Below are positions 12,001 to 26,041 of a DNA stretch of 64,000 nucleotides, in pieces. Source of the DNA: an uncultured Clostridia bacterium (GTDB taxonomy: Bacteria; Bacillota; Clostridia; TANB77; CAG-508); contig CAKPLQ010000002.1 of NCBI GenBank assembly GCA_934167685.1, positions 18,352 through 82,351 of the forward strand, written 5' to 3'. Position numbers and translations under genes: made by a program. The notes under the pieces were generated by a model, which ran no database searches, was not told where the DNA came from, and was given only the letters and a program-made list of their open reading frames with translations. Numbering within the stretch: position 1 is the stretch's first letter; each line of letters opens with the position of its first letter.

Positions 12001-13041
12001 TTAAGAGATTCATCTGGAGCAGCTAAATATAATAATGGAGACAAAGTATTAAAATATAATTTATATAACCAAAATGCTACAATATCAGAAAAAGTTACAA
12101 CTACAGATGGAAAAACTGCATATTCAGTATATGAAAATCTATCAATACCATTCTCATTTAAGGGTGCATTGCAAGAACAAAAAACTGAAAATTCAGAAAT
12201 AATTCAAGATACTAAATATTATGACAAAATTACAGGTTTAGCAGTAGAAATTACTGACGAACATGGAGAAAGAATAAAAGCTCCAGAAGTTCAAAACTTA
12301 AAACTTGTAGACAACACAGAAGTCACAGAATATACACCAGGTGCAGATGGAGTAATAAGAGTTCCACTTGCTGATGGATTATCAAAATTGCAGAATTCAT
12401 ATACATTGTCACTAAGTCAAAATAGTGTTCCAGCAGGACAGTATATAGCTAAAGTTTATTTCTTCTCATCATATGATGGAAAATACTATGGAGGAGAAGA
12501 AAAAGAAACACAAGAAATTTATATAACATTTATAAATAAGTTGCTAGGTTTAGCTGGTCTAGAATCAGTAGATGGTAGCAGAATTATAAGTAAAAATACT
12601 CGTTTAAATTTAGACGGTGGAGATGGATTAGACTTAACAGTAAAAGTTGGTTCACCTACATATGATACTAATATAAGAGTAGAGTTATATAAACGTAATC
12701 CAACATATACAGTTTCTGATGATGGAACAACAACTTATAGTTCAATAAGTTATACAAAAGTAGATTTAAAAGATTATCTACAAAGCTTAGATGGAAGTAC
12801 GTATAAGACTCCAGAAGAGTGTGAAGGACAGAATTTGGTTACTTCTGATGGATGTAAAGAGTACATGATAATGGAGAAAAAGGAACACCCAGAAACTACA
12901 GAGCAAAATGTAGAAACAATAAGTTATGAAAATGCTATAAAAGAAAATATCAACACAGGCGAGTACAAGTTAGTGTTTAAAGCATATTATAACAATACTT
13001 TAATACAAACAATAAGGAAAACATTTATAGTAACACCTTAA
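1..13041 (+). CDS. Giant repetitive cell-surface protein / putative adhesin (5'-partial, >4346 aa in window)
   Basis: The frame is open from nt 1. YVKPEFTYNK.. matches the internal 'D(Y/F)I(K/R)PExxYxYS' module junction, so the gene continues upstream. Stop TAA is at 13039-13041. Many modules are marked by 'VDVVDP(V/I)W' or 'DFxxPxxxYxYS' junctions and '(T/S)DKY(F/Y)' strands. It also carries an LRR block and a Gly-rich beta-helix block. No LPXTG or C-terminal hydrophobic anchor was seen. Confidence 0.85.
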   Translation, partial: YVKPEFTYNKMDTTIVHGNGEKVEVTFDVTDKYFDKTTLTKTDGTYDASQITVSIDDYDVTALNKSIKKELTKVEDITATVNGEERKVGERYQLTITGLDQKDENGVGDGFKYSGYMTLLFKAGAISDKSGNTSDATSITIGRNEPGGSDSDKEIVDVVDPVWSVSNADTTEGTIKLRVSDKFLIKDKSTFKLTADDITVLTNGVASTEITKQLTGPEEIVADQVYEYTLKLGNITPEIEGYTEFTPTEPIVGGTAKYKNENGGNIDIKISAGTVIDAYTNATNEQTLAIGNIDGTGPEVYLVQKTQDADASKDTIIFNVTDKNYNPEDPVTLDEISIWVDGKQVDDEITKTILSTVPIKAMIDGSERTVGHQYTVEIADIVETDEEFVATGKAYRELSGTLELRIKAEASRDIAGNTINPATTTLSDFVDYIKPEARYKYSESDIDYNGKTFKMEFDIADKYLNTINLPLENLNILIDGEEPNWDNTGVHGVVKELESTDITAIINGKTKVVGKHYTLTLSHLEQLEKLAGKDTMDYSGVITVAIPANVAVDTSTKGNDATTITSGIDILSGNVNTEAKVVDVVDPIWERVSSTASAANQTATITVKGTDKYFKSSSLTADKIKVLVNGAEVSTNVNVEVGSQVTDVMSSGGKSKIGEQYTVKVSGTGLPKDANQIKIQIQPNTLLDNSNNTNKATDLVVYNTLKNTANENRSDSGFLGSANSTNANVKAIQRAKIDNVTFVNEIPSTVFDKSAKKIVDENNTWDVSAQQDESILAWYETNANGSLKVYIGSDYEIFGNYDSSHLFGYVGNTSICTSTETITNINLLNVSSVQSMYAMFDGTGWYSMTKLDLGDNFDTSNVTNMNSMFWATGRNAMTTLNLGSKFDTSNVTNMGSMFYYTGYNKLTELDLGSKFNTSNVTSMVHMFEKLGHESMETLNLGDKFDTTKVTDMNSMFNETGQKKLNNLELGDKFDTRNVTDMVSMFKWIPLKQLDLKDKFNTSKVTDMRDMFRGLGSNEMALLDLGDKFYTTNVTDMTEMFSYIKTDVLDLGPAFTKIADTNTDMFDGVSTKLNTIYASEQIYLDKNNFKLNTDATESAVEYTRGTINPKYRTEWAKESSKITIDSTDLNKSTISITLRGRTNAEAGVDFTSDVASTLTADKIHVYFDGEEASSVTKAIGAVSTAKNAITGANDVIQVLTLSDFEQALRQQGKEYKEWSGHISLKIDKKTLKDTTYSNQNLQAIDTTGEMLDIVLKETDEVENKTNSNTDGTMFTDYIRPEFTYEYSDTEINYTDKNVKVVFSATDKYFEQSGVSLDNMELLVDGVEPDWTKVEKTLKKKTLDEDITDGTTIYKANGDIYTIVNGKEQKIGERYELKIDKLETKNAEGYSGPLTIAFKENIITDKSGNGNFAKTITIGIDDPGHHEDHKDPVIVDVVNPQWSYGTSAINRIRDGEQADTVTLTIIGSDKYYSSNSLTEDKIKVYVDDNLESSITKQLTQITDTSILKTLATKQKLADVDNLKFVGYKLTLGNFNKINGVTKIVIDAGTIQDESGNKNIETTIFVGNPEWVESGDSTTNPIYPAFRDSIVDFNSPTIKYTYSTVEGTQNPEIDYVAKTLTVKFTVTDKYIRDDSIMNADGSLNSDNIRIKVAGTDLTEQLHTTVKSKAIDEGTEYTFVVSNFELVYNEAEKYKDYSGAVDFVFSADKVDDTSGNKNKATTITLDYDDGDDTDNSIIVDVIDPVIEKTEDNLSKLNVSNGIDRDLTNETGTVSVRIQATDKYLDRGILQDAENVAKIKVKVVKPDGETVYPDTITKQVSQISKQATSITYQITLGNFGENEGVTSVIIPEGVILDKYGNTNRETEVLVGNSTWTESGDANGEYTAFRESIVDFTRPVWEYSTSSITRDRAGETGTVTIKILGRDKYYLKDTLTEKNVSVYVENSANPDKPISTITKTLTKITDTAELNGADTGYILTLGNFGTYDGAVKITLSDNTIRDTSGNGNIITEIPVGNPNWVETDISDSADNPKYTAFRNNIVDFIKPTIKYQYSENANPVIDRENKQVKITFDAVDTNFLESNILSVDDIKQILVDDYDVTETITKELTKSDITDGSGNGIRYTLTLSNFELNSNLEDEIFRRHSGKIEFVIAEGMVKDTSGNTNIETKIIVDNDNGDDKDNYIRADFIKPKLFYKDKFISWAKRYATVTISGTDRFYNFDTTLTADDILIYQLNRDGQYIQRTDLPVTVTPVKTKYGYDFVVRLDEFEEEFKQLKFTIPAGKISDLDGNLNDETDIIVDLDNKKPVWKYVDTDTSAFSSDGKITFDVKGQDTFLDLENSNLTSSDIKILKDGTDITASSSITVTNTGSDEAEVSKSYKIEVTNLNDIGIYSLVIAKDTLIDEFSNKSATTTISFSQSAINSNTDNYKMITYHVTPDFKETHQAYVHELMSINRSGTNAESTTYQASSIGEIYGNGENTLFAEPFTYENGVQKAYSFKGWAVANEKGFSADDATIYNLYEEIPNTVTHLNAVWQEATVIFVSNKGNNSNDGKSPTSPVKDLQTAYSKLDADGKDSTNIVVIMDAIEWNSSDTLTGNATITSLYAGVDYRTQGAELKVSSNINVNGDIIFDNIKLYSSSSTVNDGSDYLANGDYSNVLVTNYGDVILGRGISTPDDKYTFGAVVGGNYKEETTKNTIGLHIFIVEAGRYNDLIVGSSLSNQTTNRKYVTHQIIIGTMKEAVIQHQTAIQTRGARKTYAGNPEITGYLAMGEVEDRCYPYNRDGAQDTTLGYSRYYAITRLYSGTFTGDNSFNKADENASIYLRSINGFNDGIIKLDMYYGLVNGNIYGGSRMATTKDKNDAGQPDVNILNFYGGYAYGNVFGHGDNDTSTGNSVITATGEANVGGGIFGGSNATTVAQGKITGNTNIVVEGSASVQQIYGGSLGVIDGTNINTNTGLITGDTNITFSSLMGTNAIYGGGYNCGVRGSSNINYEVGKTNTIYGGAYQNQVQTATNINIYSGEVNDVSGGNELTTQNQLNTDNASQNTNIVIGEADKNTTPTITGTIYGGGKYDRVGTTEIRLVKTAKILGAVYGGSDSAGITNEANIYLNGITANTIYGGPKTDGFVTNSNIYLQVGTVTDVYGGGYGGTTTTSNVNVDGTSKVTNVFGGSNTNGTVENSNVELKTGTLNNVYGGGNSASVGTANVNLDGMKIDSIHGGSKTAGVSGTTNVVLNSGNVTDVYGGGYDVGATNANVTQKGASVTNIYGGNEGGSGDGGETTDATVNIVNSNATNVYGGNKDKGITRYTTINISGNSTIYNQLFGGGYKTDIGKSGAEGSTTINIAGGNILPEVYGGSNNGVVYGNTNINIGKDAVTDQTLTARAINLKANIFGAGTVVTTDYSETTVNGETHITLDNSAESPITFSGSIYGSGNGNNYTPKSAKDGSTIKIKDFGSSAKTHIMKSIERTGKLCIQDSYLELEGSRDKYNYYKNTSYTLNRITNGLTLLDNSTLYTQRGFNMVGGFESLVTTEENTTTKATATIADGVVTRNVDNRLYTYEGINLIFAKEEGDLANKAGQDIWGDVSGMAFFGMYRTSRTTENKEYDIYAPNYAGTATTNMFANGTYVEGRHKANHNINVDGFYTNVKTDSGKAEPQVIDVTDNGTYYDWIVGAEIVNYNTSLIASTYSSDSMAELSLNFKKFVKDVSYSGTTISVDRVSTNAFSVKAQLMNKLNIPTYADSSEKANYQFGLTMQTTNSGWITKGITNLYTDNNGSFDGDTVYKTDNSGEPGNIIFKLYNSVNVSTNEDLGNMNIVLTGKSKTGEDATAGKVFKIVIAVNIQTRVEELNSDYAASYVPRFTDSIKTELNYTTDSSVDITYVLLENSLQENIYTTGDYRVLSTTSPLPKGTKLTLRDFGQGDDLNKVYYYQIASDTDYDATDNSTGNTRYLYKLSKFIDMGGTSSSGKYEDNNDQYYHSGTGYAMEKYELSIDYMDTGLNTSKLAQETYLELRDSSGAAKYNNGDKVLKYNLYNQNATISEKVTTTDGKTAYSVYENLSIPFSFKGALQEQKTENSEIIQDTKYYDKITGLAVEITDEHGERIKAPEVQNLKLVDNTEVTEYTPGADGVIRVPLADGLSKLQNSYTLSLSQNSVPAGQYIAKVYFFSSYDGKYYGGEEKETQEIYITFINKLLGLAGLESVDGSRIISKNTRLNLDGGDGLDLTVKVGSPTYDTNIRVELYKRNPTYTVSDDGTTTYSSISYTKVDLKDYLQSLDGSTYKTPEECEGQNLVTSDGCKEYMIMEKKEHPETTEQNVETISYENAIKENINTGEYKLVFKAYYNNTLIQTIRKTFIVTP
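2470..3205 (+). repeat. About 9 tandem BspA/DUF285-type leucine-rich repeats inside the giant protein
   Basis: A 25-29 aa unit recurs: L(D/N)LG(D/S)KF(D/N)TSNVT(N/D)MxxMF..., for example LDLGDNFDTSNVTNMNSMF, LNLGSKFDTSNVTNMGSMF, LDLGSKFNTSNVTSMVHMF, LNLGDKFDTTKVTDMNSMF. Confidence 0.7.
8500..10290 (+). repeat. Gly-rich 'xxYGG(S/G)' repeat block, predicted parallel beta-helix, inside the giant protein
   Basis: There are dozens of short units such as NIYGGSRM, QIYGGSLG, AIYGGGYNCG, TIYGGAYQNQ, DVYGGGYGGT, NVFGGSNTNG, NVYGGGNSAS, SIHGGSKTAG, NIYGGNEGGS, EVYGGSNNG. They are spaced about 18-25 aa apart with 'SN(I/V)' / 'TN(I/V)N' turns. Confidence 0.6.
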
Positions 13042-13974: not shown

Positions 13975-14071
13975 TTTTTATTTTTTGGAACTCTAAAATA
14001 TGGCTCAAAATGCGGTATTTGTAGGGTTCCAATAAATAACATATATGTAAGAAATTTATTATAAAAAAGTA

Positions 14072-14100
14072 TAGACTTTTAAAAAAAGTTATGGTATAAA
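14072..14100 (+). promoter_or_regulatory. Candidate sigma-A promoter upstream of 14129
   Basis: -35 tagact (14072-77), 17-nt spacer, and extended -10 tg-g-tataaa (14092-14100). Confidence 0.4.
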
Positions 14101-14128
14101 ATATAGTAGGGAAAAAAGGAGGAAAAGA

Positions 14129-14572
14129 ATGAAAAAGGTAAGAAAAGGTAAAAAAATTTTAATATCTGCAATAGTTATATTTATTGCTATTATTGTACTA
14201 GTTGTGGTATTGGTAGTTAATAAAAGTAAAAACAAAAACGAAAACCAAACACCAACTGAAACAGATACGGTTATCTCATTACCAGATACAACTTATAGTG
14301 ACATGGAAGTTAGCAACATCAGTATGGAATATCTAGCTGACCAAGACAAAACTATGGTTTCATTGTCAATATTAAATACTACAAATGAAAACGTATCAAA
14401 CGAAAAATTAAATGCAATTTTAATTGGTTCTGATGAAAATGTTTTAGGACAAATGGAAACATATATCCAAACTTTAGATGCTGGTGACCAATACAATATA
14501 AGTGTGGTTTTAAAAGGAAATCTAACTGGAACAAAATTAATAAAATTAGAAAAAGTAACTGATAATCAATAG
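14129..14572 (+). CDS. Small N-terminally membrane-anchored extracytoplasmic protein (hypothetical)
   Basis: RBS aaaaggagga. The basic N-terminus is followed by one TM (ILISAIVIFIAIIVLVVVLVV) and a beta-rich ectodomain. It is the first gene of a tightly packed run of genes. Confidence 0.6.
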   Translation: MKKVRKGKKILISAIVIFIAIIVLVVVLVVNKSKNKNENQTPTETDTVISLPDTTYSDMEVSNISMEYLADQDKTMVSLSILNTTNENVSNEKLNAILIGSDENVLGQMETYIQTLDAGDQYNISVVLKGNLTGTKLIKLEKVTDNQ

Positions 14573-14620: not shown

Positions 14621-15463
14621 ATGAAAAAAATGAAAAAAGTACTAGGAACTATATTATTTGTATTATATGCCATAATTGCAATAACTGTAACTGTTTTGCT
14701 ATTATCATATAATGATTATAACAATAGCCAAATCGGTGGCTACACTGTGTATATAGTTAAAGATGATTCTTTAGAACCAGAATATAAGCAAGGTTCTATA
14801 CTATTAATTAAAAGCACAAATGATAAAAATGTGCAAGTTGGTGACAAAATGTTCTTATACAAAGTTATAAATAGCCAAGAGTATGAGGTAATAGAAAGAA
14901 CTTTGGAAAGCAAAAAACAACAAGGAAGACATATAGTTTATTATGTAGAAAATGAAGAAACTTATGCTAATGACTATTTTATTGGCAAAACTAGCGATGT
15001 TGTTGTTATACAAGGATGGGGCTATGTTTTGAATTTGCTAGAATCTAAATGGGGATACTTATTCTGCGTTGTAGTTGTATCTTTACTTCTATTCTTACAA
15101 GAAGTATTTGAGTTAGCAATGGAAATTAAATATGGCGGAGGTAAGAAGAAATCAAAAGCTGTGGAAGCAGAGTTTGAAGAGGAGCCAGAAGATGAAAAAA
15201 ATGCAGGACGTGCTGAAGCGGTTGCACATAAGACTGCAGAGGGTGCGCATAAAACTGCAACAAAAACTACAACAAGGAAGCCTGCAACTAAGACTACTAC
15301 AAGAACTAGAACTACAAGTTCAGCAAGTGCAACAGGTACAGCAAAGCCTAGAACTAGAACTACAAGTTCAGCAAGTGCAGCAAAGAAAGCGGCAACAGCA
15401 ACTAAAACAACAAGTTCAGCCAAAGGAGCAAGTGCTAAAAAAACATCAAAAGAGGAAGAATAA
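14621..15463 (+). CDS. Divergent SipW-type signal peptidase I homologue with a long basic low-complexity C-terminal tail
   Basis: It has the same fold signature as the four clear SipW paralogues: N-terminal TM, 'GGYTVYIVKDDSLEPEYKQGSILLIK', 'VGDKM', and a C-terminal TM (YLFCVVVVSLLLFL). The Ser box is DSLEP rather than GSMEP, and the THR box is not conserved. The tail is T/A/K/S-rich with a duplicated ..RTRTTSSASA.. segment. The start may instead be the second ATG at 14630. Confidence 0.65.
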   Translation: MKKMKKVLGTILFVLYAIIAITVTVLLLSYNDYNNSQIGGYTVYIVKDDSLEPEYKQGSILLIKSTNDKNVQVGDKMFLYKVINSQEYEVIERTLESKKQQGRHIVYYVENEETYANDYFIGKTSDVVVIQGWGYVLNLLESKWGYLFCVVVVSLLLFLQEVFELAMEIKYGGGKKKSKAVEAEFEEEPEDEKNAGRAEAVAHKTAEGAHKTATKTTTRKPATKTTTRTRTTSSASATGTAKPRTRTTSSASAAKKAATATKTTSSAKGASAKKTSKEEE

Positions 15464-16105
15464 ATGAAGAAATTATTAACAGTTTTAGTATTAATAATGT
15501 TAATTATATCTTTGTTCCAAATAGCTAATACTTATGCATTATACAAAGAGCAACTAAGTGGAGATTATTCAAATCTATTAGGTATATGGGCAATAAAAGT
15601 AAATGGAGTAGATATATCGTCAGGTGGGGAAAATCTGACCTTTACAATGACAGAAGACAATCTAACATATTTAGATTCTGCTCATGTAAAGAGTCAAAAA
15701 ATTGCGCCAGGAACGCAGGCGTGTTTTGAGATTATAATTGACCCAACCAACACAGATGTATCTATTCTATATACGCTGGATATACAACTTAATAATGTAA
15801 CAACAGCAAGAATGAGTTTAGTAAGAGTTGAAAACTATTTCCAAAAAGATGGAGAAACAGAGCAAATTACTAATGCAGAAGTAAATACAGAAAATGAGCT
15901 TCATAAACATACTGCAATAATACCAGTAGACAAGATAAACAGCAAATATTTAAATCATGTTAAATTATATTTTGAATGGAATAATGTAGAAGAAAACAAT
16001 GAAGCAGATTCAACATTAGGACAAACCGAAAATGCCAAAATATCAATACCACTAGAAATAAATTTAAAACAATATACAGGAGAAGTGATTAGCAATGGAA
16101 CATAA
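15464..16105 (+). CDS. Secreted TasA-like protein with a SipW-dependent-type signal peptide (paralogue of 21646-22284)
   Basis: The ATG directly abuts the upstream stop. The N-terminus is MKKLLTVLVLIMLIISLFQIANTYALYKE. It shares 'W(A/L)IKVN' and C-terminal '(F)(E/R)WN..(E/D)..N..AD' motifs with 21646. Confidence 0.6.
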   Translation: MKKLLTVLVLIMLIISLFQIANTYALYKEQLSGDYSNLLGIWAIKVNGVDISSGGENLTFTMTEDNLTYLDSAHVKSQKIAPGTQACFEIIIDPTNTDVSILYTLDIQLNNVTTARMSLVRVENYFQKDGETEQITNAEVNTENELHKHTAIIPVDKINSKYLNHVKLYFEWNNVEENNEADSTLGQTENAKISIPLEINLKQYTGEVISNGT

Positions 16106-16616
16106 TAAAATATTTAAAATTGCAAAGAAATGCATAATAAATTTAGTAATATTTTTATTAATGTGCATTGCTATTTTTGCAATATGGGGTTTAATACAAA
16201 TAAATGTGCAGAATAAAGAATATATTAATATATTCGGATATTCAGTACTTAGCACAGAAACTGGAAGTATGGCGCCAACAATTCAAAAAGGTGACATTAT
16301 AATAATCAAAATAGGTGATGAAATAAAGGAAAACGATATTATAACATACAAAAAAGACAATGTGCTAATTACTCACAGAATAGTAAGCATTACAGGAGAC
16401 ACTATTATTGCAAGAGGAGATTACAACAACACTGATGATGAGCCAATAAAGAAAGATGCAGTTATAGGTAAAGAGGTTTTTGTTATAAAAAATGTCGAAA
16501 TATGGAAAAAAGTATTTTCTGATAAAAATGTAATAATACCAATAGTTATAACAGTAATTTTATTTATAATACTAGTTTCATACAAAGAAAGAACAGGTGA
16601 GGAAGATGTTAGATAA
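16095..16616 (+). CDS. sipW: SipW-type (archaeal/ER-type) signal peptidase I
   Basis: N-terminal TM, Ser box 'TETGSMAPTIQKGDIIIIK', His box 'LITHRIVSI', 'RGDYNNTDDEPI', and a C-terminal TM. It overlaps both neighbouring genes. Confidence 0.8.
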   Translation: MEHNKIFKIAKKCIINLVIFLLMCIAIFAIWGLIQINVQNKEYINIFGYSVLSTETGSMAPTIQKGDIIIIKIGDEIKENDIITYKKDNVLITHRIVSITGDTIIARGDYNNTDDEPIKKDAVIGKEVFVIKNVEIWKKVFSDKNVIIPIVITVILFIILVSYKERTGEEDVR

Positions 16617-17184
16617 AAAGAAACTAAAGAAAAGTTTTTTTGTGCTTTTGCTAATAGCAATAATAATAATAATAGCAATAATTTTAATAAGAAAAACATT
16701 ATCTAGATACGAAACAACAGCAAATTCAGACAAAGATGTGGACGTAGCATTTTGGATAATAAATGACGATTTTAAAGCTGGAAAAATCTTGATAAAAGAC
16801 ATCTATCCATCAACAAATTCATTTGACTACAAATTTACAGTATCAAACTTTAAAGCAAATGAAGATGGAAGCATCAGCAAAAGAGCAGAAACAGACTTAG
16901 AATATGGATTGACTTTTACAACTACAACAAATTTACCATTAGAATATCAAATAGAAAAAAATGGAACCATTTTAGATACGACACAAGAAATAATAACAGA
17001 TGAAGATGGAACTTATTATAGAAAAATATCTTTAGATACAGCGCAAATGGCACAAGGAACAGATGTTGTTGATAATTTTGTCATAAAAGTAATATTCCCA
17101 AAAGATAATGATATAAATGCAGAATATTCAGATTTAATAGAATATATAAAAATGGATTTAAATGCAAAGCAAATAGTGGAGTAA
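16606..17184 (+). CDS. Secreted TasA-like protein with a SipW-dependent-type signal peptide
   Basis: ATG 16606 is preferred, with ggtgagga 3-6 nt upstream; the ORF track starts at GTG 16597. The N-terminus is MLDKKKLKKSFFVLLLIAIIIIIAIILIRKTLSRYETT, followed by a beta-rich body. It overlaps the sipW stop codon. Confidence 0.6.
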   Translation: MLDKKKLKKSFFVLLLIAIIIIIAIILIRKTLSRYETTANSDKDVDVAFWIINDDFKAGKILIKDIYPSTNSFDYKFTVSNFKANEDGSISKRAETDLEYGLTFTTTTNLPLEYQIEKNGTILDTTQEIITDEDGTYYRKISLDTAQMAQGTDVVDNFVIKVIFPKDNDINAEYSDLIEYIKMDLNAKQIVE

Positions 17185-17201: not shown

Positions 17202-17281
17202 TGCACCGATGGGACCGGTTCTTAACGGTGCAGTAAACATAACGCAAAAATGCACCGTTAAGAACCGGTCCCAAACGTGCA
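17202..17281. repeat. Inverted pair of the 31-nt palindromic repeat (units 17202-17232 and 17251-17281, 18-nt spacer)
   Basis: tgcaccgatGGGACCGGTTCTtaacggtgca ... tgcaccgttaAGAACCGGTCCCaaacgtgca. The inner 22 nt of the two units are perfectly complementary. The pair ends 23 nt before ATG 17304. Confidence 0.85.
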
Positions 17282-17303: not shown

Positions 17304-18347
17304 ATGAATAGTTTGATGGATTCGTATCTAAATTTTACAGAAAAGAAAATAAAGAAATATATGAAGATAATTTTTGCTACATATTATGATGAAGAGATTG
17401 TAGATGAGTTCTTAAGAACTTATATAAATGCAAGATATTATAATGTTCAAAATACAGACAAACCGGCAAGAGCTTTTTATTTAAGAATTTTAGATGAATT
17501 GGAATACAAAGAGGATTTGTTGATGGAAAAATGCGAAGAAGAGGCAGAAAGCCTAGACGAAAAGCAAGCCAAATTGAACAAGATTCATAAAGTTAAAGAA
17601 GTTTTTGGATATGTTTTATTTTTCGACAACGTTAGAAATATTGAAAATTTTAAAAGTATTGACAGTCTTAAAGAAATTATAGAGAAAATTATAGATTTAG
17701 TTAACTCTGATTACGAGATTAAAAATCCAAAAGATGTTGAGGACAAGCTTTACAAAGAAGTTAAAAGTAACATGATTGATAAAGATGTTTTTTTAGAAAA
17801 GTTCGAAACTGATGAGTTTTCATTAAGCTTTGAGGCTACAGAGTTTAATGAAGATTTGTATAATATTAAGTTACAACATAATGTTAAAATGCCAATGCAA
17901 TATAGTGAAAGGGCAATAGAGAAGGTATTTACAGAAGGAATTATTGCAGAGGATAAGTTACAAATTGAATATATTTTGCTAAGCACAATCGCTATAAGAG
18001 ATATTGTTAATAGCAATTTTAAAGATGCGTATATTGCAGAGTTTGAGCCTTCTTTGTTTAAGAAAAAACAAAAGTTGAATGGAATTTTAGATTTAATTAG
18101 TAATCAGGCTTTGCAGGAGAAAATTAATCTGAATATTAGTTATTCTGATTATAAGAAAAATCAAAAAAATGTGCTAGATTATACTAGCAAAGGCTACAAT
18201 TTTGTGATTACTTTAGATGAGGCTGTAAAAAGTGTTGAGGATGTAGAAAAATTGAAGATGTTTAAATTGGTTATTGCACCAAAAGATTTAGTATTATATA
18301 AACAAATTAAAGAAGATAACTCATTAACAAATGTAATGGTAAATTAA
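17304..18347 (+). CDS. Cytoplasmic hypothetical protein (347 aa, acidic/Lys-rich)
   Basis: RBS gaaagggg. No signal peptide or TM segment. It lies directly upstream of the McrB-like NTPase gene. No confident family assignment was possible. Confidence 0.6.
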   Translation: MNSLMDSYLNFTEKKIKKYMKIIFATYYDEEIVDEFLRTYINARYYNVQNTDKPARAFYLRILDELEYKEDLLMEKCEEEAESLDEKQAKLNKIHKVKEVFGYVLFFDNVRNIENFKSIDSLKEIIEKIIDLVNSDYEIKNPKDVEDKLYKEVKSNMIDKDVFLEKFETDEFSLSFEATEFNEDLYNIKLQHNVKMPMQYSERAIEKVFTEGIIAEDKLQIEYILLSTIAIRDIVNSNFKDAYIAEFEPSLFKKKQKLNGILDLISNQALQEKINLNISYSDYKKNQKNVLDYTSKGYNFVITLDEAVKSVEDVEKLKMFKLVIAPKDLVLYKQIKEDNSLTNVMVN

Positions 18348-18381
18348 CGAAATGATGTGATTTTCGAAAGGAAGAAAAAAT

Positions 18382-19935
18382 ATGGAAACATACGGAAGAT
18401 TTTTATTTGAATTTTTACACCAATTCTTTTCTGGATTTGGAGAGATTTTTGGTGGCTTATGGAGAGGAATACTTAGTATTTTTAATGTTCCAGGATATTA
18501 TTATATAATTCAAAATTATGCAAATGATTTTAAAGTATCAGAATGGTTTTTGACTGGATTAGCTATTATTTGTATGCTTGTTGTTATTGGAGGAATTGAT
18601 GGAATAATAGCATTTTTCTTGAAAAAGCATATAAAATGGAGAAAAAAGGTTCTTGACCAAGAAGAATTATTAAAACAAATTGATACTTTAAATGGGCAAG
18701 TTGAAGAATTGGTTGATGAAAAACTTAAATTGCTATCTATGAAAACTCCAGAATTGGGTGTAAATTCTAATGGAATAAGTACAGGAGCTGATAGAACTGC
18801 ACTTGCTGCTGCTCAGTCACAGGCTAATGATGAAGAACAAATTGACCCTAATAGTCAAAGTAGATTCTCTAAATTAACTTTAATAGACCAAGAATATGCA
18901 AAATATAAACAAAAAGATTATCACGATTCATTTACACTACCAGAATTTTGTTATAGATTTAGAAATTTTGCAGCTAGTAAGTTAAAATTGTATTATAGTG
19001 AAAAAATGATTAGATTATTCGTATCAGCTATAGCTTCAACAAAGCTAGTTATCCTACAGGGTATTTCTGGTACTGGTAAAACTTCTATATCTCTTGCTTG
19101 GGGTAACTTTGTAAAGCATCCTTCTTGTGTTGCTTCAGTACAGCCTTCTTGGAGGGATAGAACAGATATTTTTGGGTACTTAAACGAGTTCACTAAAAAG
19201 TTTAACGAAACAGATTTCTTAGCATATTTGTACGAAGCTGGATATACTGATGAAATTTTTACAGTAATCCTAGACGAGATGAACTTGGCGCGTGTTGAGT
19301 ACTATTTTGCAGAAATGTTGTCAATTCTAGAAATGCACAGTACAAAAGATTGGAAGATTGAGGTTGTGCAAAGCTCATGGCCAACAGACCCTAAAAAGTT
19401 AATAAGAGGTAAATTACAAATTCCACCAAATGCTTGGTACATAGGAACAATCAATAACGACGACTCTACATTCATGGTAACAGATAAGGTATACGATAGA
19501 GCTATGCCTATAGATATTAACGAAAAAGGTATTGAATTTGAACCTGATGATATTGATGCACTTGATGTTAATTATTCATATTTAAATGGTCTATTTGAAA
19601 AAGCTATGGTAGATTATGCAATTTCAACGGCTACTTTAAAGAAAATTGATGACATGGATAACTACACAATTAAGCACTTTAGAGTTGCTTTTGGTAACCG
19701 TATTGTAAAACATATGAGAAAATTCGTACCTGTTTATGTAGCTTGTGGAGGAGATGAAACTGAAGCTGTAGATTACTTTATGGCTAAAAAGGTTTTAAGA
19801 AAATTCGAAGCTCTTAACTTGGCATTAATTAGAGATGAAATTGACGGATATATAGAATTCTTAGATAAAAACTTTGGTAAAGGCAAAATGTCTGAATGTA
19901 TAGAATTCTTACTAAGATTGAAGAAGATGTCATAG
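18382..19935 (+). CDS. Membrane-anchored McrB-family (AAA_5) AAA+ NTPase
   Basis: Two N-terminal TM segments (GILSIFNVPGYYYII; FLTGLAIICMLVVIGGIDGIIAFFL) precede a coiled coil. Walker A is LQGISGTGKTS and Walker B is VILDEMNLARVEYYFAEMLSILE. 'PPNAWYIGTINNDDSTFMVTDKVYDRAMPIDI' parallels McrB 'PENVYIIGLMNTADRS..D.ALRRRF.FI'. Confidence 0.75.
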   Translation: METYGRFLFEFLHQFFSGFGEIFGGLWRGILSIFNVPGYYYIIQNYANDFKVSEWFLTGLAIICMLVVIGGIDGIIAFFLKKHIKWRKKVLDQEELLKQIDTLNGQVEELVDEKLKLLSMKTPELGVNSNGISTGADRTALAAAQSQANDEEQIDPNSQSRFSKLTLIDQEYAKYKQKDYHDSFTLPEFCYRFRNFAASKLKLYYSEKMIRLFVSAIASTKLVILQGISGTGKTSISLAWGNFVKHPSCVASVQPSWRDRTDIFGYLNEFTKKFNETDFLAYLYEAGYTDEIFTVILDEMNLARVEYYFAEMLSILEMHSTKDWKIEVVQSSWPTDPKKLIRGKLQIPPNAWYIGTINNDDSTFMVTDKVYDRAMPIDINEKGIEFEPDDIDALDVNYSYLNGLFEKAMVDYAISTATLKKIDDMDNYTIKHFRVAFGNRIVKHMRKFVPVYVACGGDETEAVDYFMAKKVLRKFEALNLALIRDEIDGYIEFLDKNFGKGKMSECIEFLLRLKKMS

Positions 19936-19952
19936 AAAGGATAGAAAAGTAA

Positions 19953-21077
19953 ATGGACTTAAATGTAATGAAACTTGCCAATATGGAAAGTGGACAATCA
20001 TCACAGGATTTTTTGAACAAGGTTGATTCTAAATTAATGATTGATGTTAACAAAAGTCAAATTGTAGAAAATGATGAATGGATTGATATGGTTGAGTTTT
20101 CACTTCCACATATAGAAAAGGCTTTGACAAAAGAGATTAAAAATATTGTTACTGAAGAGGAAATAATAAAAATTGAATTAATTAAAAAGGTAAGTGTTGA
20201 AAGTGTAAAACATTTGTCAAAAAACGTAAACTATGTTGATAAATTTAATCAGAAAACAGGAGAAGTAATTCCTAAAAAGATTTTGAATGCATATAAAGAA
20301 GAGACTTTTATTACATATGAAAATAGATTCTTATACAGCCTTATAAAATTGATTGAAGATTACATGTATTTGCGCGAAAAAGACCAACAAACCGAGTATA
20401 AAGGTAAGAATGAAGAAAAGGCAAATTATCAAGCTGAAGTTAAATACAAAAAAGAAAAAATTAAAGTTAACTTTGATTATTCATCAGAAAGCAATATTGG
20501 CGCTAAAAAGTCAGATGATACAGCTGAAAGAATTCAAGATATTAAAAAGAAAATTAAAGATTTAAAGACTACTAATGTATATCAATTATTACAATCAAAA
20601 AGGATTACTCTTGTAAAATCACCTTTAAAAATGACTAATGTATTGTTAAAAAATGTGCATTTTCAATATGCGGTCAAATTGTGGAATTATTTAAGCGAAC
20701 AAATAGAAATAAAAGATAAAGCAGTAAAAACAAATAAAGTCTATGAAGAAAATGGAATTGCAAAAAAACTTGTAGATGAAAATGTATTTTTAATGCATTT
20801 GATTTTTAAAAATCGTGATATAGAAGAGAAACTGAAAGGTCAAAAAAAGAGTGCATTAGAGGATAAAAAGGCAAGAAAAGAATTGACTGATGATTTGATA
20901 GAAAAAATAATTGAGTTAAATCCTGATATATCTGACAAGGATTTGAAGCAGATGATTGCAGATAAACTAATATTAATGAAAACTCGTAAGTTAATTTCTT
21001 TAAAACCTATTGAAGATAGATTTAAAGAGCGAATTAATAAATATATGGTACTAGCAAAAGAAGTGAGGTTAAAATAA
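19953..21077 (+). CDS. Cytoplasmic partner protein of the McrB-like NTPase; possibly McrC/DUF2357-like but with no recognisable nuclease motif
   Basis: It starts 18 nt after the NTPase gene and its stop is 2 nt before the next sipW. 'ITYENRFLYSLIKLIEDY' and 'TNVLLKNVHFQYAVKLWNYL' recall the N-terminal region of McrC-like partners. The C-terminus is Lys/Glu-rich with no PD-(D/E)xK pattern. Confidence 0.5.
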   Translation: MDLNVMKLANMESGQSSQDFLNKVDSKLMIDVNKSQIVENDEWIDMVEFSLPHIEKALTKEIKNIVTEEEIIKIELIKKVSVESVKHLSKNVNYVDKFNQKTGEVIPKKILNAYKEETFITYENRFLYSLIKLIEDYMYLREKDQQTEYKGKNEEKANYQAEVKYKKEKIKVNFDYSSESNIGAKKSDDTAERIQDIKKKIKDLKTTNVYQLLQSKRITLVKSPLKMTNVLLKNVHFQYAVKLWNYLSEQIEIKDKAVKTNKVYEENGIAKKLVDENVFLMHLIFKNRDIEEKLKGQKKSALEDKKARKELTDDLIEKIIELNPDISDKDLKQMIADKLILMKTRKLISLKPIEDRFKERINKYMVLAKEVRLK

Positions 21078-21079
21078 AA

Positions 21080-21649
21080 ATGAATGACGAAAGAGAAAAT
21101 GTGGGGAGAAAGTGTGTTCAAATTATTTGGAATATATTTTCTAGAATATTAACAATAGCTGTGATACTGGTATGTATAGTAATTATAGTACAAAAGGTAA
21201 GTAATAATAAGGAGTCATTTTTTGGATATAGAATATTCAGAGTTCAAACAGGAAGTATGATTCCGAAGTACCAAATAGGAGATGTTATTCTTGTAAAAGA
21301 GAAAGAGCCAAGCAAAATTAAAGTTGGTGATGACGTTACATATAATGGAGAAGCTAGTTCTGTTAAAGGACTGTTGATAACCCATAGAGTAATAAATATC
21401 GAAGAGATTGATGGTCAAAGAGTTTTCCATACCAAAGGTATTGCTAACAATTTGGAAGACCCTATTGTATATGAACATCAGATTAATGGAGTAGTTCAAA
21501 GCAAATTATATATTTTAACATTTATTTGTACTTTGTTTAATAATAAATATGTATTCTATTTTTGTGGAATCTTACCTTTATCTATATATGTAGTTTTTAG
21601 ATTTTTTAAAGGAAAGCGTTACGAAGATATTGAAAGGGAAAACAGATGA
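21080..21649 (+). CDS. sipW: SipW-type signal peptidase I
   Basis: N-terminal TM, 'FFGYRIFRVQTGSMIPKYQIGDVILVKE', 'IKVGDDVTY', 'LITHRVINI', 'HTKGIANNLEDP', and C-terminal TM(s). Confidence 0.85.
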   Translation: MNDERENVGRKCVQIIWNIFSRILTIAVILVCIVIIVQKVSNNKESFFGYRIFRVQTGSMIPKYQIGDVILVKEKEPSKIKVGDDVTYNGEASSVKGLLITHRVINIEEIDGQRVFHTKGIANNLEDPIVYEHQINGVVQSKLYILTFICTLFNNKYVFYFCGILPLSIYVVFRFFKGKRYEDIERENR

Positions 21650-22284
21650 GAAAAAAAAGGATAGTGTTTTTTTTAGAAATATTGTGTATTATTTCATTAT
21701 TGATTACAATGTTATCTATACAAAGAACTTATGCAAGATATTTTGAAATGGTTGATACAACATATGATACACATATTAAAAGATGGCTAATTAAAGTTAA
21801 TTCACACAATATACATGAAGAGCAGACTCTTACAGAAGTTATGCAACCTGTTTTAGTAGAAGATGAAAACAGAAATAGCAATGTTTTAGTTCCTGGTGGA
21901 ACTGGATATTTTGATATGGTATTAGATTACAATTATGTTGATGTGGCTTTTCAGTATGAATTTTCTATAGAACAGCTTAATACCAACCAATTAGCGGATT
22001 TTGAGTTATATGGATATGAAATAATTGATGGCGATACTTCAACTGTTACAGAAACAAATGAATTGAAGGGCGTAATTGAACCAGAGACTGATGTTAATAG
22101 TGCAGGAGAAAAGATTCGAGAAGTAAGGTTTTTGTTTAGATGGAATGATGGTGATGGTAGTACTATGAATAATCAAGCTGATACGCAGTTTAGAGGCGAA
22201 GCAAATACTAATCAGCAAGATTTACATACTATTTTAAACTATAGAGCGACTTTAAAGTTTAGTCAGTATATACCAACAACATAA
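21646..22284 (+). CDS. Secreted TasA-like protein with a SipW-dependent-type signal peptide (paralogue of 15464-16105)
   Basis: It overlaps the sipW stop (ATGA). The N-terminus is MRKKRIVFFLEILCIISLLITMLSIQRTYARYFE. It carries 'RWLIKVNSHNI' and 'FLFRWNDGDGSTMNNQAD'. Confidence 0.6.
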   Translation: MRKKRIVFFLEILCIISLLITMLSIQRTYARYFEMVDTTYDTHIKRWLIKVNSHNIHEEQTLTEVMQPVLVEDENRNSNVLVPGGTGYFDMVLDYNYVDVAFQYEFSIEQLNTNQLADFELYGYEIIDGDTSTVTETNELKGVIEPETDVNSAGEKIREVRFLFRWNDGDGSTMNNQADTQFRGEANTNQQDLHTILNYRATLKFSQYIPTT

Positions 22285-22302: not shown

Positions 22303-22440
22303 ATGGAAATTAAAAATATTAAAACATCAAAATTAGAAAATAAAGAATTATTAGATGTTCAAAAACAAGTTGAAAGTTTTTTAAAGTTTTTAAATACTGA
22401 ATATGATACTGTTAAAAAATTAGAGGAGGAAAATTCATGA
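22303..22440 (+). CDS. Small ORF (45 aa, MEIKNIKTSKLENKELLDVQKQVESFLKFLNTEYDTVKKLEEENS), not in the ORF track
   Basis: RBS aaagagggg lies 7 nt upstream. Its stop overlaps the next start (ATGA at 22437-22440). It carries the RBS gaggagga of the downstream gene. It is predicted helical and acidic. Confidence 0.35.
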   Translation: MEIKNIKTSKLENKELLDVQKQVESFLKFLNTEYDTVKKLEEENS

Positions 22441-24044
22441 AAGAATTAGTAGAAAATGTAGAAAAACAAATAGCAACAGATAAAGAGGTCATTTCAGTTT
22501 TACCAAGAAATGGTATAAAAGCTATAAAAACGTTGGCTCAAACAATACTAGAAATGCAAGAAAAATATGAGGCAGTTAATGAGACATTGGTAAAGGAAAT
22601 TAAAGCTAGATATAGCGAACTTACAGAGGTTGAGGCCAATAAAGAAATCCCTCAAATTGAAACTGAGATAATGAAATATGATGTAGCTGTTAAAAACACA
22701 GATACTCGCTCATCTTTTGAAAAAATGGGATTGGATAAAGTTACATATAATATTAATGGATATTATAAAAGCAATTTAGAAAGATTGAATAAAGAGTTAA
22801 TTGACTGTGTAAAACAGTTCGAAAGTGTTGGAATAAGGCTAGATGAGAACGATTTTGATTTGAGCGAATATTCTAAAAAATACATGTCTGTTTTATTAAA
22901 AGAGGCTTATGATGGCAATATCAATTCTGAAATAATTAAAAATACTTTTGAAAAGGTGTATTGGGAATGTTCTGATGTTGTTTCTCATTTGTATGCATGT
23001 GTAAGATACATTTATGACAAATATGAAAATGAGATTGATAAATTTTACGAAAACAAAGCAGAAGAGATATTGAAAAGCTTCAAACTAACTCCAGAGGAAG
23101 TTGAAGAAAAAAAGGCTGAGATGATTAAAAAGAAAAATAGAATTGAAGCTACCGATAATAAGATTATTTTAGATAAGTTTTTTACAGGTGCACTAAATAT
23201 AAATGATTATAAAGGTGATAACTATAAGAAGATTTATATAGAGCTAACTGATAAAGATGTTTCTGATATGTCTGATTCTGAAAAAGCAGAAATGGATGAG
23301 AATATTGAAAAGTTAAATGAAAATTTAGATGAATATGCTAAATATTCTGAATATAAATTCTTAGTTGATGAAATATTAAAGATAAGAGCTGAAGAAGAGA
23401 AAAAGCTTCAAGCCAAAAAAGATAAAAAAAGTAAAAATACAGATTATGATTTGACTAGAGAGAAACTTAAAAAATTGAAATCAGAAATTTTTAAGTTAAA
23501 TGGCAAAATTGCTAAACCTAAAAAAAGTCTTTTTGGAAAGAAAAATGACAAAAAAGATAGTTCTGCTATTTTACAAAGAAACAACTTGATTTTAGAATTG
23601 AAAAATACTTATATGGATTTAGACAATGAAATTTTAAGAAAGAAAATAGTTGAAAATATTGATGATACATCATCTTTACTTGATGTACTTAAACTTGCAA
23701 GTAGTTATTATTGGTTTATGGCCAAATCTATGATTGCTAAAAATGAAGAGATAACAGATAAAGAGATTGGCGATACTGCTAAAAAGATTAGAGATTTTAT
23801 TAATTTTTCTAATTTTTCTGTAATAAATTATATCAAAATTAGTGATACCAAGGAATTGGCAGTTATAATTAAAGATAAATATAAATTGTTTGATATGCAA
23901 GTTTCTAAAGAGAATTTTCAAGAAGACAATATTGAGGATTTGATTAAGAAGGTTAAGATTGTAAGCAATTATAATAATATACAAAAAAGTAAATTTTCTG
24001 TTGAGGATTTAGAGTATATTACAACAGTAAAAGAAATGAAATAA
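22437..24044 (+). CDS. Cytoplasmic Lys/Glu-rich coiled-coil protein (535 aa, hypothetical)
   Basis: Strong RBS gaggagga. No TM or signal peptide. It has long heptad-like K/E/L stretches and sits between sipW/TasA-like gene pairs. Confidence 0.6.
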   Translation: MKELVENVEKQIATDKEVISVLPRNGIKAIKTLAQTILEMQEKYEAVNETLVKEIKARYSELTEVEANKEIPQIETEIMKYDVAVKNTDTRSSFEKMGLDKVTYNINGYYKSNLERLNKELIDCVKQFESVGIRLDENDFDLSEYSKKYMSVLLKEAYDGNINSEIIKNTFEKVYWECSDVVSHLYACVRYIYDKYENEIDKFYENKAEEILKSFKLTPEEVEEKKAEMIKKKNRIEATDNKIILDKFFTGALNINDYKGDNYKKIYIELTDKDVSDMSDSEKAEMDENIEKLNENLDEYAKYSEYKFLVDEILKIRAEEEKKLQAKKDKKSKNTDYDLTREKLKKLKSEIFKLNGKIAKPKKSLFGKKNDKKDSSAILQRNNLILELKNTYMDLDNEILRKKIVENIDDTSSLLDVLKLASSYYWFMAKSMIAKNEEITDKEIGDTAKKIRDFINFSNFSVINYIKISDTKELAVIIKDKYKLFDMQVSKENFQEDNIEDLIKKVKIVSNYNNIQKSKFSVEDLEYITTVKEMK

Positions 24045-24050: not shown

Positions 24051-24659
24051 GTGAGGACAAAATTGGAATATGATGTTGAAAAACTTTCTAACAAAATTAG
24101 AAAGAAAAAAAGGACAAAGAGGCTATTTAAAATTATAATACTTGTTTGTTTGATTATACTTTTTCTGATTAATTTGATTTTATCATTTGAAGAACATACT
24201 CATATTTTGGGAATATATATGTTTAATATTGTTTCCGAGAGTATGGAGCCAACATTTTATAAAAATGATTTGGCTGTTGTAGGAAAATGTCAACTGAGTG
24301 AGTTGAAAAAGGGTGATATTATAACATTTAAACAGGATGATAGAATTATTTCACACAGAATATTACAAATTACTAAAGAAAAAGGTGATATTAGATTTAT
24401 TACTAAAGGCGATAATAATGAAGTTGCAGATAAAGACGCAGTACTACCAAATGATGTTTATGGAAAAGTCTGCTTCATTATTCCTAAATTAGGAATTGCA
24501 GTTCATTATATACAAAATGCGCGAGGCTTGATTAATGTATTTATTTTTATGTTTATTTTATATTTTTTGGTTAGCCTTAAAGATAATCAGAAAAATAGCA
24601 GAAAAATTAAAAGGAAGAAATATGAAATTAAGAAGCTTAGGGATAATTACAATGTATAA
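24051..24659 (+). CDS. sipW: SipW-type signal peptidase I
   Basis: 'IVSESMEPTFYKNDLAVVGK', 'KKGDIITF', 'IISHRILQI', 'ITKGDNNEVADKD', a C-terminal TM, and a basic tail (KIKRKKYEIKKLRD). The start is uncertain: GTG 24051, or TTG 24063 with gggtgagga upstream. Confidence 0.8.
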   Translation: MRTKLEYDVEKLSNKIRKKKRTKRLFKIIILVCLIILFLINLILSFEEHTHILGIYMFNIVSESMEPTFYKNDLAVVGKCQLSELKKGDIITFKQDDRIISHRILQITKEKGDIRFITKGDNNEVADKDAVLPNDVYGKVCFIIPKLGIAVHYIQNARGLINVFIFMFILYFLVSLKDNQKNSRKIKRKKYEIKKLRDNYNV

Positions 24660-24673: not shown

Positions 24674-25315
24674 ATGGAGAAAAAGATATTTCGAATAGTA
24701 TTTAAAGTAATATATCAAATAATTGTTATAATATGCTTGATATTAGCTGCTGTGATTATAATGCAAAAGGTCACTGATAGCAACAGGTCAATTGCAGGAT
24801 ACAGAATATTTAGGGTCATTACAGGAAGTATGGAGCCAGAATATGACGTTGGCGAAGTTGTTATTAGCAAAGAAGTTCCTACTAAAGATATTAAGGTTGG
24901 AAACGATATTGTATACATTGGAAGAAATGGTGAATATAGTGGAAAGATTATCATGCACAGTGTTATTGCAATTGATAAAGACGAAAATGGTAATTATAAT
25001 TTCCATGCCAAAGGTTTACACAGCAGTAGTGTGGAGGATCCTCAAATTAAAGAAAACCAAATTTATGGAGTTGTTAAATACAAATCAAAAATATTAACTG
25101 TATTATACAAATTAGCAACTAATATATACACGGTATTTGTCATCATTTTAGTTTTAGTATTAAATGTGTTTATTGCTTTTACTGGAAATAGAAAAGACAA
25201 AGTACAAAAACTTAGTGAGTCAACTTATATTGATGAAGATGAAGAAGTTGATGAGGACGAAGACGTTATCGACGAGGATTCGGGGAATGTAGAAAATACT
25301 GACGAAGAAGAGTAA
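24674..25315 (+). CDS. sipW: SipW-type signal peptidase I with an acidic C-terminal tail
   Basis: 'IAGYRIFRVITGSMEPEYDVGEVVISKE', 'IKVGNDIVY', 'IIMHSVIAI', a C-terminal TM, and then the tail DEDEEVDEDEDVIDEDSGNVENTDEEE. Confidence 0.8.
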   Translation: MEKKIFRIVFKVIYQIIVIICLILAAVIIMQKVTDSNRSIAGYRIFRVITGSMEPEYDVGEVVISKEVPTKDIKVGNDIVYIGRNGEYSGKIIMHSVIAIDKDENGNYNFHAKGLHSSSVEDPQIKENQIYGVVKYKSKILTVLYKLATNIYTVFVIILVLVLNVFIAFTGNRKDKVQKLSESTYIDEDEEVDEDEDVIDEDSGNVENTDEEE

Positions 25316-25342: not shown

Positions 25343-26041
25343 ATGAATATATTACGTGAATTCAGACGAGTAAAAAAGCGAAGTATGTCGTCAAGGATTA
25401 GATTAGTTTTGATTTTTGCTGTAATATTAATAGTAAATACTTATGCATGGTTTAGTACAGAGCGAGCCATTAGCACCAAGGGGCTAGAGGCTTCGATAAC
25501 ACCATGGGATATTAAATATTATGTTGATGGAAAAGAAGTTTTGGACGAAGATGTTACTTTTACAATTGACGAATTATATCCAGGAATGCCTAGCAGAGAG
25601 GATAATGTTCATGTTTATAACATGAGCACAACCAGTTCTGCTATAAGTTATGAATTAATATCGGTTAAAGTTTTTGGGCAAGAAGTATTAAGTCAATTAA
25701 AAGAAGATGGAGAAATCCAATCTGATGGTAACACCGTCAGGATTTTTGCCAATAACAATTCATATCCTTTTGATATAAGTTATACATATGACAAAACAAG
25801 AATTGATGGGGAATACAAAGATGATGAATCGACTCCAAATGCAGGTGCCAAGTTTTCGCTTAACGTAAATTGGGATTATAAAGGAAACGGTACTGAAGAT
25901 GAAAATTTAGCCAAAGATGTTTTAGACACAAAGTTTGGAAAAGATGCATACAAATATTACCAAAATGGAGAAAATGATTCATCTAAAGCAATTGAAATTG
26001 TTGTAAAGATAACAACATCAATGATTAAGGAAAAGAAATAA
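25343..26041 (+). CDS. Secreted TasA-like protein with a SipW-dependent-type signal peptide
   Basis: RBS ggaggat. The N-terminus ..RLVLIFAVILIVNTYAWFSTERAIS can be compared with TasA ..GGGTWAAFND. The body is beta-rich and ends in 'FSLNVNWDYKGNGTEDE'. Confidence 0.7.
   Translation: MNILREFRRVKKRSMSSRIRLVLIFAVILIVNTYAWFSTERAISTKGLEASITPWDIKYYVDGKEVLDEDVTFTIDELYPGMPSREDNVHVYNMSTTSSAISYELISVKVFGQEVLSQLKEDGEIQSDGNTVRIFANNNSYPFDISYTYDKTRIDGEYKDDESTPNAGAKFSLNVNWDYKGNGTEDENLAKDVLDTKFGKDAYKYYQNGENDSSKAIEIVVKITTSMIKEKK

Follow-up and report, generated by a model that had tools for sequence, protein, structure and literature searches.

We analysed a 64,000-nucleotide stretch of DNA (hereafter the window) from an uncultured Clostridia bacterium (contig CAKPLQ010000002.1, positions 18,352 to 82,351), in which three consecutive genes, here called A, B and C, encode a cytoplasmic protein, a predicted membrane-anchored GTPase of the McrB type and a reduced homologue of its partner McrC. 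Our analysis suggests that this trio is probably a CoCoPALM-type GTPase module that derives from McrBC, has left DNA and takes part in a SipW-dependent machinery for surface fibres or giant adhesins. A preliminary description of this DNA, made from the sequence by eye, had offered two readings, a membrane NTPase for the export or assembly of a fibre or adhesin and a nuclease-less defence module that had inserted into the operon, and we favour the first. It is supported by the synteny with SipW genes in 78 of 80 related loci, by gene fusions, by the lack of a detectable nuclease and by a housekeeping neighbourhood. The second fails as an insertion because the module keeps its position in genomes from two bacterial classes.

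The three open reading frames (ORFs) were found on the forward strand exactly where they had been described (Table 1), separated by spacers of 34 nucleotides (nt) between A and B and 17 nt between B and C. The McrB-family motifs reported for B are present, namely the Walker A motif GISGTGKT, the Walker B motif LDEMN and an asparagine signature of the NxD type (N358-N-D360-D361-S-T). B matches the AAA+ domain of E. coli McrB (PDB 6hz4) with an E-value of 9e-5 in an alignment spanning the Walker A motif, the Walker B motif and the asparagine signature, and a family profile built from 14 sequences retrieved the same three McrB entries from PDB and nothing else (2.5e-5). Pfam AAA_5 is matched by 13 of 14 diverse B homologues, with the B of the window itself below detection. 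The N, D, S and T of the signature are invariant in the 14 diverse homologues, and GISGTGKT, [LV]DE[MIL]N and NND(D/E)ST are kept in all 84 B homologues of the related loci. A wider search for relatives of B returned 8236 representatives at E <= 1e-3.

The preliminary description had given B two transmembrane helices, and one of them is robust. It covers residues ~55-80 (hydropathy 2.64 over residues 62-80), while the first hydrophobic stretch, residues 6-35, is too weak to establish a second helix (family median hydropathy 1.33). The strong helix is followed by KKHIKWRKK, which places the AAA+ domain (residues ~190-517) in the cytoplasm, and a putative coiled-coil or linker region lies between the helix and this domain. 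A transmembrane segment was found in 83 of 83 full-length B homologues, and those relatives that align over the full length keep the hydrophobic and transmembrane N-terminus down to ~33% identity. No DNA-binding family was matched by the N-terminus of B, which is made of the hydrophobic segment, the transmembrane helix and a charged helical linker. By these features B is an McrB-type AAA+ protein with an NxD signature and a predicted membrane anchor.

One could also read this N-terminus as FtsB-like, so that B would be targeted to the divisome as a factor of cell division or envelope remodelling and its link to SipW would be incidental. FtsB homology of the N-terminal region is indeed reported in the short CoCoPALM passage of a recent McrBC survey (PMC11090510). 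The similarity is weak in our data, with Pfam DivIC (E 0.012) matched by one of the 14 homologues and FtsL_2 by one of the 14, and this much would be expected of any transmembrane helix followed by a coiled coil. There are no division genes in the neighbourhood, and both the synteny and the fusions described below point to SipW. We regard a role in cell division as very improbable.

The likeness of C to McrC/DUF2357-type partners, noted in the preliminary description, was confirmed by a match to Pfam DUF2357, the N-terminal domain of McrC, which scores 33 bits over residues 61-171 against a gathering score of 23.3; DUF2357 is precomputed for nearly all C homologues. Hydropathy gives no transmembrane segment in C. 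In an alignment of 39 sequences the conserved residues (W43, K109, E117, Y122-E-N-R125, T228-N229, N234, F237 and W244) are all in the DUF2357-type region, and the last ~120 residues are variable, charged and helical, as judged from the alignment and a low-confidence model. C had been said to show no PD-(D/E)xK pattern, and the family agrees, as the 39 homologues conserve no acidic/Lys motif in the C-terminal half and no D...(D/E)xK residues beyond residue 250. No nuclease family was found for C in Pfam, NCBIfam, PADLOC or the PDB sequences, and the profile of the 39 homologues finds no PDB nuclease. Profile searches for a nuclease in C or A had been set beforehand as a check on the export reading, and they detected none. 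The scan of the operon for nucleases was also negative, covering 10 genes (including A, B and C), the giant ORF and the 399-amino-acid (aa) protein with Pfam, the other small genes with NCBIfam, and A, B, C and the 535-aa protein with PADLOC. The C homologues of the Oscillospirales are longer, at 717-853 aa, and the extra length is a long coiled coil with crescentin-type matches, not a nuclease. C appears to retain the N-terminal domain of McrC only.

We collected 80 loci related to the trio, one genome per species, at 48-96% identity. They come mostly from RF39-type 'Bacilli/Tenericutes/Clostridium sp. CAG' metagenome-assembled genomes, with about a dozen from Acutalibacteraceae or Ruminococcus-type genomes (Oscillospirales). 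The nearest cluster by itself is listed in 247 blocks of the collection. C adjoins B within 130 nt in 78 of the 80 loci, and a SipW-like gene lies on the same strand within 7 kb in 78 of 80. An A-like ORF, as detected by a hidden Markov model of A, is directly upstream of B in ~64 of 80. Frequent neighbours of B and C include homologues of three window proteins, those of 232, 262 and 399 aa, and the 262-aa membrane protein is kept together with SipW, B and C in both RF39 and Oscillospirales loci. In the window the next SipW gene starts at 21080, only 2 nt past the C stop at 21077 as had been noticed, and its product matches TIGR02228 with an E-value of 1.4e-24 (86.8 bits, cut-off 51.85). The preliminary description had proposed such a survey of gene neighbourhoods as a test between SipW loci and defence islands, and the setting at the window is not that of a defence island. 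The genes downstream in the window encode RNase J, GluRS, AdSS, SerRS, UvrA and other housekeeping proteins; the flanks are housekeeping, neither a defence island nor a mobile element.

In nine loci (L061, L062, L068, L069, L072, L075, L077, L078 and L080) SipW and A are fused into a single protein of 646-756 aa, of which the A domain forms the C-terminal half. The N-terminus of these fusions is a complete SipW, as seen in the eight that we aligned, with a first transmembrane helix (TM1), an S24/S26 catalytic domain carrying the GSM and HR motifs and a second transmembrane helix (TM2), and TM2 is followed by a long acidic linker. In one genome (L084) the C homologue is 998 aa long, with a Peptidase_S26 domain close to its C-terminal end. 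The architecture of the SipW-A and C-SipW fusions indicates that A and C are on the cytoplasmic side of the SipW peptidase. Nothing else argues as strongly as these fusions and the synteny that the GTPase module acts together with the peptidases and is not merely encoded among them.

McrBC is the textbook GTP-driven restriction motor, in which the N-terminal domain of McrC inserts in the McrB ring and stimulates GTP hydrolysis. The window locus shares with canonical McrBC (E. coli; PDB 6hz4 and 6ut6) the AAA+ core, the Walker A and B motifs, the asparagine signature and a partner with the McrC N-terminal domain. Canonical McrBC, however, has an NxxD signature, a DNA-binding reader domain and a PD-(D/E)xK nuclease in a restriction or defence locus, whereas the window locus has an NxD signature, a predicted membrane anchor and no detected nuclease, in a secretion operon. 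The McrBC survey mentioned above (Bell, Makarova, Wolf, Koonin, eLife 2024; PMC11090510) describes a branch with NxD in place of NxxD, usually followed by D or E. Within it three sentences, which defer to 'a separate, forthcoming publication', introduce 'another large clade' whose GTPase is fused to an FtsB-like transmembrane and coiled-coil domain, name it CoCoPALM and propose a link to pilus assembly. The traits given in this passage are an McrC homologue, usually extended by a coiled coil, and an association with genes of the signal peptidase family. The supplementary text of the survey holds no further detail on CoCoPALM, and our full-text literature search found no CoCoPALM follow-up and no study joining McrB, signal peptidases and pili beyond this paper.

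The window locus has in common with CoCoPALM the NxD McrB-like GTPase with an N-terminal transmembrane segment, the adjacent DUF2357 McrC homologue, the signal peptidase genes and the occurrence in Bacillota. No defining feature differs, with the FtsB homology and the coiled coil of C weakly supported here. By its predicted proteins the window locus is a member of CoCoPALM, a class named in 2024. The preliminary description had thought that a role in export or assembly would be new for the McrB clade, which does not hold since the link to pilus assembly had already been proposed. The CoCoPALM passage itself is silent on A, on the SipW-A fusion and on the likeness of the A model to EAL domains, on the true EAL genes of the Oscillospirales and on the link to giant DUF285 or leucine-rich repeat (LRR) proteins, all of which are treated below.

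Defence is nonetheless the activity to which the relatives of B point. According to the same passage the NxD clade otherwise consists of predicted restriction-like systems, among which CoCoNuT shares with our locus the NxD GTPase branch and has coiled-coil extensions, as suspected here, and an McrC homologue that often has no active PD-(D/E)xK. The best profile match of B is PDC-M26A (1.8e-36), a candidate-defence model of PADLOC, with the best stretch aligning residues 202-321 to model positions 314-434 of 724, and the N-termini differ in many of the relatives that measure 600-840 aa. The trio could therefore be a nuclease-less defence system of the McrBC/CoCoNuT lineage, whose membrane GTPase would sense phage at a surface structure, such as a pilus that serves as receptor, and act through an unlinked effector or through the shutdown or shedding of that structure. 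CoCoNuT, however, always comes with a HEPN or other nuclease and has no membrane anchor, whereas no nuclease was found here and B is predicted to be anchored. The PDC-M26 system is incomplete in the window, as only B matches it, and PADLOC gives no match for A, C or the 535-aa protein. In addition, no nuclease or other effector domain was detected, fusions to SipW exist and the flanks are housekeeping genes. The place in the SipW operon is kept over 80 species in two classes, not patchy or island-like as is typical of defence genes. We consider the defence explanation unlikely.

A palindromic repeat pair had been taken to mark the 5' side of the trio. The palindrome is real, with 31-nt arms and a minimum free energy of -55.9 kcal/mol as RNA (z -8.6), and it is not specific to the module. 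It belongs to a dispersed, GC-rich family resembling repetitive extragenic palindromic (REP) elements, with the core GAGAACCGGTCCCA, which lies between genes, mostly in inverted pairs that can form hairpins, in a genome of 30% GC. The core has nine matches in the window against zero expected. An Rfam scan of the window gave no match, so that the palindrome corresponds to no known RNA. We rejected the palindrome as the border of an inserted module because the family is dispersed and A, B and C are syntenic in two bacterial classes.

The cytoplasmic protein that had been noted ahead of the pair, A, is present and has no transmembrane segment by hydropathy. No family was detectable for it by sequence or profile search in Pfam or PDB. 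Its AlphaFold2 model, with a predicted local distance difference test (pLDDT) score of 69, is confident for a helical bundle (residues 4-164) and for a beta/alpha C-terminal region and weak in the section between them. When this model was compared with PDB using Foldseek, about 35 of the top 40 matches were EAL domains (FimX, LapD, MorA, RocR and BlrP1), with the FimX EAL on top, E-values from 7e-3 to 0.1 and TM-scores of 0.3-0.43 (target-normalised ~0.4). The alignment of the A profile with a profile of true EAL domains by hhalign gave an E-value of 0.0018 at a probability of 14.6% and put A residues 238-327 on the core EAL strands; the alignment of A with a single EAL sequence was not significant. 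Only F172, Y200 and Y243 are invariant in the A family, and Y40, Y45, S201, E216, K254, K257 and G297 are nearly so. The catalytic and metal-binding residues of EAL domains (the EAL Glu, the Asn, ExxE, DD, the Lys and the Glu) are missing from the A family alignment, and hence A, if EAL-like, would be catalytically degenerate.

The 12 Oscillospirales-type loci have no A, and eight of these 12 have a bona fide EAL gene within the cluster, at a distance of a few kb on the upstream side. We put the chances about even that A is a degenerate EAL-like sensor domain, and we treat this as a lead rather than a finding. As far as we found, a putative EAL-type input that is fused to SipW in some loci and replaced by a true EAL gene in the Oscillospirales has no earlier description.

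The operon runs from the giant DUF285 protein to ~28.2 kb of the window and encodes five SipW-type or SipW-like paralogues. The trio had been described as lying between sipW/TasA-like pairs. SipW-type peptidases do flank it, whereas likeness to TasA appeared in no profile or PDB search, which for the secreted proteins comprised Pfam with single sequences (four ~200-aa proteins and the 399-aa protein), NCBIfam, PDB with family profiles (the 232-aa and 399-aa families only) and Pfam on family members (the 399-aa family only). At least five secreted proteins of the operon have an N-terminal signal-anchor followed by a motif of the (S/T)YAWF/TYALY type, which we take to be like that of SipW-cognate substrates. 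The SipW-TasA/CalY/BsaA operons of Bacillus and Clostridium are alike in having a dedicated SipW-type peptidase beside signal-anchored substrates, but they have no NTPase, and the window locus has five SipW paralogues and substrates in which TasA/camelysin similarity is not detectable.

Two side observations concern these genes. The SipW-like protein at 14621-15463 ends in a low-complexity tail of ~110 residues, which is the place that the fused A domain occupies in other genomes. The homologue of the 212-aa protein (21646-22284) is on the opposite strand in many RF39 loci, between the homologues of 25343-26041 and 26161-26949, while the copy in the window is co-oriented. An inversion might explain this difference, or the subunit gene might be regulated separately.

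We propose the following mechanism, partly by analogy with McrBC. A ring of B would be tethered under the membrane by the transmembrane helix and a coiled-coil stalk, and C would activate the hydrolysis of GTP by B. A and the coiled coils might then link the GTPase cycle to the SipW peptidases. Such coupling could gate or power the cleavage of the (S/T)YAWF-type signal-anchors and the delivery of the subunits into a polymer outside the cell, or else the exposure of the giant adhesin, and A may serve as an input that senses a nucleotide or second messenger in the manner of FimX or LapD. Taken together these steps would make up a new machine for the assembly of filaments or adhesins in monoderm gut bacteria, in which the B and C ring is docked to SipW through a degenerate EAL-type A, the nucleotide or second-messenger state and GTP hydrolysis gate cleavage and hand-over, and the EAL input is regulatory. 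This complete scheme is tentative, and we find it rather doubtful in all its parts at once.

The scheme follows the same logic as type IV pili (PilB, PilC and PilD, with FimX-PilZ), which combine a hexameric NTPase at the membrane, a leader peptidase and signal-anchored subunits, and the regulatory input of a degenerate EAL domain in FimX is possibly paralleled by A. However, the PilB and McrB motors are not homologous, nor are the aspartic peptidase PilD and the S26 peptidase SipW, and no platform protein was identified here, so that this is an analogy only. In the LapD-LapG-LapA system a cytoplasmic degenerate EAL receptor likewise steers a protease outside the cytoplasm whose substrate is a giant adhesin. 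It differs from the window locus in protease family and in receptor architecture, LapD comes with no NTPase, and the match between A and the LapD EAL is weak.

In another reading, akin to the latter system, the client of B and C would be the giant LRR protein of the DUF285/BspA type, not the small SipW substrates, with B and C aiding the export, anchoring or release of the adhesin and with SipW and A acting as a switch like LapD-LapG. A protein of more than 4346 aa adjoins in the window (its homologues have 4622-4642 aa), and LapD is among the EAL domains that match A in structure. Of the 43 loci that span 18 kb or more, 37 have an ORF of 1000 aa or longer on the same strand, and in the wider relatives giant surface proteins are as constant as SipW beside B and C. 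Moreover, distant B/C pairs of the transmembrane type in two further loci (L085 and L086) adjoin LRR_5 proteins of 1670-2750 aa, and no SipW-like gene was found among the genes tested in L086. On the other hand, within the close clade no neighbours are tighter or more constant than SipW and the small signal-anchored proteins, and the fusions join SipW, not the giant protein. The N-terminus of the window copy, and hence its type of signal, lies outside the window. We hold a giant client, as the sole or a further one, to be possible, though short of probable, and compatible with the explanation by a SipW-coupled module rather than exclusive of it. As a separate observation, L085 carries two tandem B-like/C-like pairs at 4692-12923 (465 and 604 aa, 493 and 1141 aa), flanked by giant LRR_5 proteins and by others that exceed 1000 aa.

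Several points weigh against a SipW-coupled, fibre- or adhesin-assembling module with an EAL-type input. None of the 31 members of the A family matches Pfam EAL (PF00563) even at E <= 1, and in that Pfam library the true EAL protein of L065 is matched at 1.4e-46. The EAL-like assignment of A is weak, with the low hhalign probability given above, TM-scores of 0.3-0.4 and a low-confidence middle of the model. The secreted proteins show no likeness to TasA/camelysin (Peptidase_M73) or to pilins within the search scope given above, and 'fibre' is an assumption. In L086, where giant LRR proteins flank the pair, blastp with the proteins of the window found no SipW-like gene among the five neighbouring genes tested. 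The AlphaFold2 model of C, made from close homologues only (68-87% identity), is poor (pLDDT 52) and its Foldseek matches are scattered noise, so that the case against a nuclease fold in C comes from sequence. McrBC, CoCoNuT and PADLOC PDC-M26, the nearest relatives that have been characterised or predicted, are defence systems. Finally, our literature search found no experiment on any member of the clade, and the GTPase activity, the ring and the interaction of B with C are carried over from McrBC. Even with these points counted, synteny, fusions, the lack of a detected nuclease and the housekeeping flanks support the export or assembly reading.

Table 1. Features of the operon and its surroundings in the window, and related features of other loci (L numbers denote related loci)
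Feature	Position	Strand	Description
A	17304..18347	+	347 aa; cytoplasmic; helical bundle residues 4-164, beta/alpha C-terminal region residues 243-346
B	18382..19935	+	517 aa; membrane-anchored McrB-type AAA+ GTPase (predicted)
C	19953..21077	+	374 aa; McrC homologue reduced to DUF2357 and a C-terminal third
Giant DUF285/BspA-type surface protein	1..13041	+	>4346 aa; frame open at window base 1
SipW-like peptidase paralogue	14621..15463	+	280 aa; basic Thr/Ser/Ala-rich tail after TM2
Small secreted protein	15464..16105	+	Signal-anchor and TYALY; putative SipW substrate or fibre subunit
SipW-type signal peptidase paralogue	16095..16616	+	Two transmembrane helices; Pfam Peptidase_S24/S26 above cut-off
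Small secreted protein	16597..17184	+	Signal-anchor; putative SipW substrate
REP-like inverted repeat	17202..17281		Between the secreted-protein gene and A
SipW-type (archaeal/ER-type) signal peptidase I	21080..21649	+	TIGR02228
Small secreted protein	21646..22284	+	212 aa; signal-anchor and TYARY; putative SipW substrate
Highly charged cytoplasmic protein	22437..24044	+	535 aa; no transmembrane segment, predicted coiled-coil-like; found in some related loci
SipW-like peptidase paralogue	24051..24659	+	Paralogue in the operon
SipW-like peptidase paralogue	24674..25315	+	Acidic C-terminal tail
Small secreted protein	25343..26041	+	232 aa; signal-anchor and NTYAWF; commonest conserved substrate-like family beside B/C
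Single-pass membrane protein	26161..26949	+	262 aa; charged cytoplasmic N-terminus, transmembrane residues 46-64, extracellular domain
Secreted protein	27027..28226	+	399 aa; signal-anchor and STYAWFST; conserved C-terminal EGQDxDC; in most loci
REP-like repeat, four other intergenic sites	33826-33891, 51977-51996, 56165-56255, 57068-57118		
EAL-domain genes heading Oscillospirales-type clusters	L065:5469-6224, L067:5390-6145, L071:5237-6061, L073:5300-6055, L079:3837-4577, L081:6374-7114, L084:5936-6694, L066:1-645		Pfam 1.4e-46 (L065)
Opposite-strand homologues of the 212-aa protein	L008:13992-14591, L010:13992-14582, L027:13897-14496, L045:14093-14686	-	

Some further features of the window were observed around the operon. 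The interval from the giant protein to the first SipW gene holds, at 13107-14572, three small ORFs of 112, 147 and 147 aa; two of them have N-terminal transmembrane anchors, and the first two have homologues that reappear shortly before A in other loci. An ORF at 40675-41991, directly upstream of uvrA and overlapping its start, encodes a protein of the Pfam family Predicted AAA-ATPase (PF09820, 4.4e-49) that is unrelated to A, B and C. No convincing terminator was found within the block from A to SipW in a terminator scan. Promoter-like sites are no commoner in the window than in shuffled sequence, so the promoter scan was uninformative.

The class to which the trio belongs was already named in 2024, and what our analysis adds is a parts list, the evidence from fusions, a possible second-messenger input and the link to giant adhesins. 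If the explanation is true, a defence motor would have been exapted for the biogenesis of the cell surface, having shed its nuclease and its DNA reader, become bound to the membrane and been tied to signal peptidases. The operon offers a compact and testable candidate for an NTPase that assembles signal-peptidase-dependent fibres and giant adhesins in monoderm bacteria. Among the uncultured lineages of the human and animal gut, namely RF39 and Oscillospirales, the system is both abundant and widely distributed.

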